This document shows positions 29,822 to 30,583 of a stretch of DNA of 64,000 bases, piece by piece. This DNA comes from Escherichia phage VB-EcoM-WM, in sequence record PQ014731.1, one strand, 5' to 3'. The notes beneath the pieces are model-generated. The model was not told the origin of the DNA. It saw nothing but the letters and a program-made list of their open reading frames with translations, and searched no databases. Positions within the stretch are counted from its first letter, which is position 1, and every line of letters starts with the position of its first letter. The position numbers and the translations under genes are program-made.

Positions 29822-30583
29822 CATTATGTTCAAGGTGGTTCGCAAGGCCACCCCCGCACCTTTACGTGCTGCTGCATGTCCCCATGCAGATCAGACTATA
29901 TCTTCACACTTAGTGTGTCTACCATTTCGAGTGTCATCAGCTTACACCCTACACCGCTACATTCATCACGGTTAGTCGTTAGGCATTTCGTAACAGAACT
30001 CGTAATCATAGTTATTAGGTGCACCACGTTTCAGGATAGCAGATATTCTTTTTCTATCTATTCCTAAAACATCAGCACAACATCTCAGACTCTTAAAGTG
30101 AATAACCACACCAGTTAATTTGTGGGTGGCTTTCACCCCGTGACATCTTGTGTAAAAAGCATAACAGTTGTTGTCGTATCCTTCTTGAGTATTGTCTGGG
30201 CAAGCTCCCCACTCAAGGTTGTATACGCTGTTATCTTTCCTGTTGTCACCTTTGTGCTTAACATATGGTAAATTGTCTGGATTTGGTAAAAACGCTTCAG
30301 CAACAAGTCTGTGAACCCTTAGGCAAACAGTCTTTTTGTTCTTGCGTATCCTGACAAGACGGTAACCTGTGTTTATCTCTTCCCACGAATGAATAATTCT
30401 TTCATTTTCGTATCGGGTGCAATAAACATTGCCCATCTCGTCAATTTCATAACCTTCAAAATCACGAATTTGTTTTCTCATTTCAGGACTCCTCTTAGTC
30501 AGGAGTTCTGTTACGTTTAGCACGGGATTGTCCGTTCTGGAGTTTCCCCGTTTAGATAGATTTTACATGAGCAGTTATAGTTT
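29822..30583 (-). mobile_element. intervening sequence in nrdD (putative group I intron) carrying an HNH endonuclease gene
   Basis: Separates two halves of nrdD; 5' exon ends in U (GGU), intron ends in G; removal joins TSMG to CRSFLS in frame. Confidence 0.55.
29972..30481 (-). CDS. HNH homing endonuclease
   Basis: VKHKGDNRKDNSVYNLEWG HNH motif; AAGAGGAG RBS. Confidence 0.7.
   Translation of the reverse strand: MRKQIRDFEGYEIDEMGNVYCTRYENERIIHSWEEINTGYRLVRIRKNKKTVCLRVHRLVAEAFLPNPDNLPYVKHKGDNRKDNSVYNLEWGACPDNTQEGYDNNCYAFYTRCHGVKATHKLTGVVIHFKSLRCCADVLGIDRKRISAILKRGAPNNYDYEFCYEMPND

Follow-up and report, generated by a model that had tools for sequence, protein, structure and literature searches.

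A probable T4-type group I intron with an HNH endonuclease gene at a conserved cysteine codon of coliphage nrdD

Introduction

In the rV5-like coliphage VB-EcoM-WM the nrdD gene, located on the minus strand, is split in two by a 762-nt insert that contains an open reading frame of its own. Are the two parts of nrdD separate genes, or do they represent one gene whose halves are rejoined at the RNA level? Group I introns with homing endonucleases are classical residents of ribonucleotide reductase (RNR) genes in phages (PMC2988022, PMC3653736), and the mobile intron of T4 nrdD (sunY) is one of them (PMC2988022). The kind of intron considered here is thus a well-known phage element of the textbook type, and its presence as such is no surprise. 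The questions that the locus raises are whether the insert has everything such an intron needs, how it relates to known introns and what its relatives in other phages say about its mobility.

All coordinates refer to the window, that is, the whole stretch of DNA that was analysed (64,000 nt of sequence record PQ014731.1). A first-pass annotation, made from the letters of the window and a list of its ORFs, had proposed that nrdD is interrupted by an intervening sequence that codes for an HNH endonuclease and has intron-like junctions.

Results

The two parts of nrdD and their exact junction

Along the minus strand the gene order is a glutaredoxin-like gene (32019-31741), the N-terminal nrdD ORF, a 169-aa ORF and the C-terminal nrdD ORF. 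The N-terminal part of nrdD (exon 1, 30584..31744, minus strand) starts with GTG at 31744 and codes for the ATP-cone and the N-terminal half of NrdD. Its 3' end, ...ACAAGCAUGGGU, consists of the codons T-S-M-G387 (ACA AGC ATG GGT, final nucleotide U), just as had been read in the first-pass annotation. Past this point AAA CTA TAA closes the frame two codons into the insert (K-L-stop). The C-terminal part (exon 2, 28844..29821, minus strand) begins with UGU, the codon for Cys388, includes the glycyl-radical domain and terminates with the stop codon at 28846-28844. The insert itself, the proposed group I intron, spans 29822..30583 on the minus strand, in phase 0 between Gly387 and Cys388; the two ORFs, originally placed about 760 nt apart, can now be delimited to the base, with exactly 762 nt between them. 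At its 3' end the insert reads ...ACATAATG, followed by TGT AGA AGT TTC TTA TCG (C R S F L S), and the AUG noticed earlier immediately before CRSFLS is present. In what follows, intron positions are numbered so that position p is window coordinate 30584-p.

Several comparisons place the junction at a single position. Pfam maps the ATP-cone and positions 1-263 of the NRDD profile to the ORF at 30575-31744, and positions 263-562 of the same profile together with Gly_radical to the ORF at 28844-29851. The NRDD profile is split at position 263/263, exactly at the junction. Excision of 30583-29822 joins the frames as TSMG-CRSFLS, as had been expected, and results in a 2139-nt ORF of 712 aa, the length of the uninterrupted nrdD of Vequintavirus naam (L001). 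The joined protein is identical to naam NrdD at 703 of 712 residues, and exon 1 shows 95.95% identity to nt 1-1161 of naam nrdD. Moving the boundary by a single nucleotide in either direction leads to the loss of the match to naam nrdD.

Alignment to NrdD references, which had been suggested in advance as a check, was carried out, and the two halves were found to abut at a conserved site. The joined protein aligns with residues 228-376 of T4 NrdD without a gap across the junction. Cys388 is aligned to T4 Cys290 within a contiguous, highly conserved MGCRSFL motif, in agreement with the conserved cysteine region that the first reading had named. In T4 NrdD, Cys290 is the radical-bearing catalytic cysteine. 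The ligated-exon junction predicted for VB-EcoM-WM is ...AGCAUGGGU joined directly to UGUAGAAG.

The length of the insert (762 is a multiple of three) and the HNH ORF, which is in the frame of both exons, would also suit an intein or another in-frame insertion at the protein level. This reading is refuted by in-frame stop codons in the insert: one lies two codons past exon 1, and more occur both before and after the HNH ORF. In addition, a Pfam search found no intein domain, and the lengths of homologous inserts, described below, are not divisible by three. The probability of an intein is practically nil.

The gene inside the insert

The ORF within the insert (29972..30481, minus strand) runs from ATG at 30481 to TAA at 29972 and codes for a 169-aa I-HmuI-like protein. 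That an HNH endonuclease gene is located here is upheld by the match to PHROG 59 'HNH endonuclease' (E=4.5e-32) and by the match to I-HmuI of phage SPO1 (PDB 1U3E), which extends end to end over residues 3-166 (E=6e-8). The Pfam HNH_3 score, 20.1 bits, stays under the cut-off of 24.8. A strong ribosome-binding site in front of the gene, also part of the earlier description, is indeed there: the Shine-Dalgarno sequence GAGGAG (30489..30494, minus strand) lies 7 nt before the ATG. Of the remainder of the insert, 102 nt precede the gene and 150 nt follow it, ~252 nt altogether, very close to the ~250 nt of non-ORF intron estimated at first.

The window protein and I-HmuI (169 and 174 aa, respectively) are homologous over their whole length. 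In each, the HNH motif is succeeded by a DNA-binding region at the C terminus, and both are encoded within phage group I introns. The I-HmuI intron, however, resides in a DNA-polymerase gene, and its ribozyme and phage group are different as well. I-HmuI acts by nicking DNA. An HNH motif comprises a catalytic His, a structural Asn and a metal-binding Asn or His; His76, Asn88 and Asn97 are invariant across the six intron HNH proteins compared. Directly in front of the catalytic His the window protein has Lys (VKHK), whereas I-HmuI has Asp at this position (Asp74), presumably a metal ligand. This Lys is kept in four lineages, while the protein of Vibrio phage F99 has Cys and that of the other intron ORF of phage JEP1 has Asn; these residues are neither acidic nor His. 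With Lys at this position, catalytic competence of the HNH protein is not guaranteed. Nevertheless, homology suggests that it is a homing endonuclease of the I-HmuI type, with a presumed activity and target to match.

The Shine-Dalgarno sequence of the HNH gene falls in a predicted hairpin (ACUCCU/AGGAGU), and analogous hairpins are predicted in phages VEcB and F99. The hairpin may regulate the gene by sequestering the Shine-Dalgarno sequence, and in this it recalls the translational control under which T4 intron ORFs stand.

The insert as a T4-type ribozyme

We consider the insert to be, with a probability of about 0.9, a mobile group I intron of the T4-type IA class and a close relative of the T4 nrdD (sunY) ribozyme. 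A search with the Rfam model RF00028 matched the 3' part of the insert with 32.9 bits (E=2e-6). The hit falls short of the gathering score of 50, since an ORF of ~500 nt interrupts P6 and the model cannot bridge it; in the resulting alignment ORF sequence is misused as P1/P2. A natural ORF-less copy at the same nrdD site is present in phage ECGD1. It is ~90% identical to the window intron in the non-ORF parts and scores 70.4 bits, above the gathering score.

The fold was examined in nine homologues, with their ORFs looped out, from five lineages (Vequintavirus, Justusliebigvirus, Krischvirus, Felixounavirus and a Vibrio phage). The mapped structure consists of P1, P10, P3, P4, P5, P6/P6a, P7, P7.1, P7.2, P8, P9, P9.1 and P9.2; P2 is absent from the mapped structure of the window intron. 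In the nine-sequence alignment 96.9% of pair cells are standard pairs, and compensatory (both-side) changes are found in 33 of the 81 pairs. None of the 500 shuffles reached the observed percentage of paired cells, number of doubly changed pairs or covariation score. In slid controls, in which the 3' partners were moved by 1-3 columns, pairing dropped to 29-43%. Supplied with no structure, RNAalifold predicted the same helices except for the P7 pseudoknot, which is missing from its output because the program cannot represent a pseudoknot. The core helices P3-P8 and the P3/P7 pseudoknot are all present and have covariation support, apart from P7 itself, which is invariant in the nine sequences and therefore provides no covariation evidence for or against the fold. 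P7.1 and P7.2, located between the 5' strand of P7 and the 3' strand of P3, are likewise present, each with 2 compensatory pairs.

In the window the 5' half of the ribozyme core (30503..30560, minus strand) comprises the 5' strand of P3 (30560-30555), P4-P5-P4' (30551-30522), and P6 with the 5' strand of P6a (30521-30503), with no P2. The 3' half (29822..30001, minus strand) comprises the 3' strand of P6a (30001-29989), the 5' strand of P7 (29979-29973), P7.1, P7.2, the 3' strand of P3 (29923-29918), P8, J8/7, the 3' strand of P7 (29898-29893) and P9-P9.2. The intron ends with a G at 29822, and this nucleotide is G in all nine homologues. The endonuclease ORF sits in the P6 loop, closed by the 13-bp P6a helix (CGUAACAGAACUC/GAGUUCUGUUACG), and the 5' strand of P7 overlaps the HNH stop codon. 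The last ~30 nt of the ORF, with the codons E-F-C-Y-E-M-P-N-D-stop, double as the 3' strand of P6a, J6/7 and the 5' strand of P7.

The mapped structure also bears on whether the insert might be a decayed intron, with nrdD a pseudogene that is tolerated given the aerobic RNR genes of the phage. An aerobic nrdB-type gene does lie just upstream, at 32023-33111. However, all core helices pair and the mapped structure contains no bad pair in the window sequence, every mapped pair being intact, and both exons are intact as well and nearly identical to the uninterrupted allele. Moreover, an identical sequence has been maintained in several independently isolated phages, and the ribozyme is intact even in derivatives that have lost the ORF. 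Decay is therefore highly improbable.

Pairings of the intron with both exons

The internal guide sequence (3' strand of P1, UGCUCAUG) is located at 30566..30573 on the minus strand, intron positions 11-18, and pairs with exon 1 nt 30590-30584 and intron A1. In terms of hexamers, the exon 1 end AUGGGU pairs with the guide GCUCAU, and the wobble pair U(-1)•G12 marks the 5' splice site. This U•G is invariant (9/9 sequences), and compensatory changes occur at two pairs of P1.

At the other end, the P10 guide segment CUAUA (30576..30580, minus strand; intron positions 4-8) pairs with UGUAG, the beginning of exon 2 (29821-29817). P10 shows covariation with exon 2, in that UGUAG/CUAUA of the window corresponds to UGUAGAGC/GCUCUAUA in the Felixounavirus homologue and to UGCCGAUC/GAUUGGCA in F99. 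The helix is 5 bp long in the window, 8 bp in both Felixounavirus and Vibrio phage F99, and only 3 bp in phage JSE. The two 8-bp helices differ in sequence, each being matched to its own exon 2. The sequence of naam nrdD at the junction position would not form P10. The proposal that the insert is a group I intron with an HNH homing endonuclease gene thus gains agreement from the junction, the splice-site signatures, covariation, P10 and the homology to I-HmuI.

These pairings bear on the idea that the insert does not splice at all, but is an HNH cassette that leaves nrdD as two genes, so that NrdD would be assembled from two separately translated products. There are precedents for such an arrangement: nrdA of Aeromonas phage Aeh1 is split in this manner in association with mobE (PMC3653736), and one HNH-associated insert of phage CB7 failed to splice (PMC7344957). 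In the window, the SD-like AAGGUG lies 5 nt ahead of a GUG in frame at 29851, and the Cys codon has an AUG immediately before it. On the other hand, a cassette of this kind does not account for a complete group I core kept by compensatory changes that include P1 and P10 with both exons. The candidate Shine-Dalgarno sequence and the GUG fall inside the covarying helices P9.1/P9.2, and the upstream in-frame extension is not conserved. Furthermore, the break separates Gly from the Cys equivalent to T4 Cys290, inside a motif that is otherwise contiguous. We therefore regard two separate genes as very unlikely. Strictly speaking, a C-terminal NrdD fragment might still be translated separately from unspliced RNA by way of AAGGUG and the GUG at 29851.

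The relatives of the intron speak to the same point. The lengths of homologous introns (770, 290, 760 and 742 nt) include no multiple of three, and ahead of exon 2 the Felixounavirus copy lacks a start codon in frame. Because of these two features, splicing would be needed in the relatives.

Homologues at the same site and signs of mobility

Homologous introns occupy exactly the same site (..Met-Gly/Cys..) in five phage lineages: Vequintavirus (the window, JEP1 and phita32), Justusliebigvirus (VEcB and the ORF-less ECGD1, PD211 and UAB_1), Krischvirus (JSE), Felixounavirus (JohannRWettstein) and Vibrio phage F99. The introns of ECGD1, JohannRWettstein, JEP1, JSE and VEcB, which are known from annotations, have the site, the ribozyme and the HNH family in common with the window intron. 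In the GenBank records of ECGD1 and JohannRWettstein both nrdD exons are already joined into one CDS, and the JEP1 record labels the identical ORF 'HNH homing endonuclease, Phage intron'. A further intron, with a differing guide sequence, interrupts the nrdD gene of JEP1 at a third site. In the ORF-less derivatives the content of the P6 loop alone has been deleted and the core has been kept; the ECGD1 intron, 290 nt long, still has the final codons of the lost ORF.

The distribution of the intron is patchy. The insert is present in 17 of the 298 phage records that match the nrdD region, and in many close relatives nrdD consists of the two exons alone. The intron is identical in JEP1 (762/762 nt), whereas the adjoining exons are 92.4-96.7% identical; in particular, the 301 nt upstream of the intron show 92.4% and the 941 nt downstream 95.3% identity between JEP1 and the window. 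Since the intron is 100% identical in a phage with diverged exons and is missing in most relatives, it appears to have been mobile recently. Identity to JEP1 continues from the intron into the first ~90 nt of exon 2, but on the exon 1 side over 11 nt only.

Intron-bearing alleles from different subfamilies have the tract GTCACAAGCATGGGT followed directly by TGTAGAAGTTTCTT in common. At this tract the intron-less naam allele, whose nrdD sequence around the site is GTAACGAGCATGGGTTGCCGGAGTTTTCTTAGC, shows synonymous differences in a cluster, with 18/30 identities over the opening 30 nt of exon 2, compared with 24-30 in the other bins. From the ungapped comparison of exon flanks we used only the short common tract and the comparisons with naam and JEP1, because indels make the comparison with distant phages uninformative beyond ~20 nt into exon 2. 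The patchy distribution, the identical intron between diverged exons in JEP1 and the flanking-exon patterns in JEP1 and naam are what homing with co-conversion would be expected to leave behind.

Relationship to the T4 introns

The closest known system is the T4 nrdD (sunY) intron, which resides in the same host gene. Globally, with ORFs looped out, it is 67% identical to the window intron, with long identical core blocks; over the P7-P8 core the identity reaches 80% (BLAST). The two introns have in common the guide GCUCAU, the absence of P2, and the layout of P7.1/P7.2 and P9-P9.2. Nevertheless, they do not share an insertion site. The T4 intron is inserted after nt 538 (Glu179/Tyr180), whereas the window intron lies 110 codons downstream, at the equivalents of T4 Gly289/Cys290; identity of the two sites is ruled out. 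The endonucleases also differ: T4 has the GIY-YIG enzyme I-TevII, encoded downstream of the core, and the window intron has an HNH gene in the P6 loop.

The T4 introns in td, with I-TevI, and in nrdB, with I-TevIII, have the T4-type IA architecture with the endonuclease ORF looped out of P6. Over the P7-P8 core the td intron is ~72% identical to the window intron (BLAST). Both td and nrdB introns are inserted in other genes and have other guide sequences than the window intron. I-TevIII of the T4 nrdB intron is an HNH enzyme (PMC1865063).

The 5' exon hexamers at the two nrdD sites are AUGAGU in T4 (Glu179/Tyr180) and AUGGGU in the window (equivalent to T4 Gly289/Cys290). The guide is the same in both introns, GCUCAU, and it is flanked by a near-identical core. 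Tentatively, one ribozyme lineage may have moved between the two sites of nrdD by ectopic, guide-directed insertion, with a later swap of endonucleases and homing retargeted to the new site; we think of this as a possibility with the odds rather against it. One example of the route would be that the intron reverse-splices into nrdD RNA and recombination then takes place. The swap would have replaced a GIY-YIG gene downstream of the core with an HNH gene in P6, thereby retargeting homing to the new site. If this is true, the intron family is a natural record of site-switching by a group I intron. In any case, the guide common to the sunY and window introns is a modest, testable lead on how introns change sites.

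Proposed splicing and homing

In the scheme that we propose, nrdD would be transcribed as a single precursor RNA, in which the intron would fold into P1-P10 and a core with the P3/P7 pseudoknot. Pairing of the guide GCUCAU with the exon 1 end AUGGGU would bring the U•G wobble to the 5' splice site, and an external guanosine would then attack there. Exon 1, once freed, would attack after the terminal G (29822), positioned by the P10 pairing CUAUA/UGUAG. Ligation would produce ...Ser-Met-Gly/Cys-Arg-Ser-Phe... and a full-length NrdD of 712 aa. In a mixed infection, the HNH protein would cut or nick intron-less nrdD near the conserved site, and repair from the intron-bearing genome would copy in the intron along with a short stretch of flanking exon.

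Splicing of the nrdD intron in vivo is what we infer from the conserved fold and its pairings with the exons. Viability of the phage would not by itself be proof of splicing, because the phage may not require nrdD when cultured aerobically in the laboratory. For HNH-containing introns of phage CB7, which belongs to the same subfamily, splicing has been shown by RT-PCR (PMC7344957).

Discussion

A search of a literature collection found no paper on a family of nrdD introns at the ..MG/C.. site, or on its splicing or homing. Neither did it find a description of an nrdD intron for rV5-like, Justusliebigvirus, JSE or Felix O1-like phages: the rV5 paper deals with terL introns only, and the Felix O1 paper reports no introns. 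In most sequence records nrdD is divided among two or three 'ribonucleotide reductase' genes, listed separately, with a 'hypothetical protein' in addition. Judged from sequence, nrdD of such coliphages is one gene with a predicted self-splicing intron. This has a practical value for annotation, as public genomes of these therapeutic-candidate coliphages mostly split nrdD.

Beyond annotation, the intron family illustrates several aspects of the biology of mobile introns. In essential enzymes, homing elements are aimed at the codons that are conserved best; in nrdD this is the codon for the Cys at the position of T4 Cys290. The evolution of such elements is modular, as ribozyme and endonuclease change separately. 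At the same time the two modules can overlap, the coding sequence of the endonuclease being also that of the ribozyme elements P6 3', J6/7 and P7 5'. Finally, the ORF-less survivors, in which the ribozyme has outlasted the endonuclease gene, represent a record of a later stage of the homing cycle.

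A second group I intron in the same genome

Beside the intron in nrdD, the window carries a second group I intron, located in terL. This intron has no ORF (region 58393-58735, plus strand; 92.7 bits with the Rfam group I intron model RF00028) and lies between ORFs 57660-58409 and 58736-59473, dividing the large terminase gene into a Terminase_6N half and a Terminase_6C half. The 3' domain of the terL intron (about 58595-58668) has almost the same sequence as P9-P9.2 in the nrdD intron, and this similarity indicates that the genome's two introns are related. For phage rV5, terL introns have been described (PMC3606486). 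Upstream of terL, on the plus strand, a cluster of five tRNA genes (55399-56119) is followed by a small canonical HNH gene (56169-56510; Pfam HNH, 23.8 bits).

Endonuclease genes of the nrdD region

The HNH protein encoded by the nrdD intron has the motif VKHK, in which Lys directly precedes the catalytic His. This Lys is kept in four intron lineages, whereas I-HmuI has Asp at the same position. In I-HmuI, the Asp preceding the catalytic His is a metal ligand. The interval that separates nrdD from the nrdG activase gene (27162-27653) holds a gene for a 310-aa DUF723/CapR/T5orf172 protein (27801-28733, minus strand; PHROG 681, 'endonuclease'), which looks like a free-standing homing-endonuclease-like gene. 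The matching position in T4 is occupied by mobC. The 310-aa protein gene is also found in naam, a phage without the nrdD intron.

The nrdD intron of the window is also carried by GenBank records MG065644-MG065690, which are 96-97% identical to its E. coli Vequintavirus nrdD region. These records, about 140 kb in length, are labeled 'Campylobacter phage A142', A141, A140 and others; the assignment of Campylobacter as the host looks doubtful.

Intron sites in phage nrdD

The nrdD gene of phage JEP1 contains an additional 797-nt insert (L002, the JEP1 sequence, 1404-2200) with a weak match to RF00028 (27.7 bits) and a 534-nt ORF (177 aa); the window nrdD has no counterpart of this insert. It is positioned at ..SVNG|QTPF.., with the T4 sunY site 11 codons upstream, and its guide sequence, GCCGUUG, is unlike that of the window's nrdD intron. 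Since this insert has its own site, phage nrdD has at least three intron sites. The T4 sunY intron (L006, the T4 sequence, 2417-3449) and the window nrdD intron (30583-29822) occupy two different nrdD sites and have the guide GCUCAU in common; the 5' exon finishes with AUGAGU in T4 and with AUGGGU in the window. Judging from these sequences, the same guide at two nrdD sites may be a trace of site-switching.
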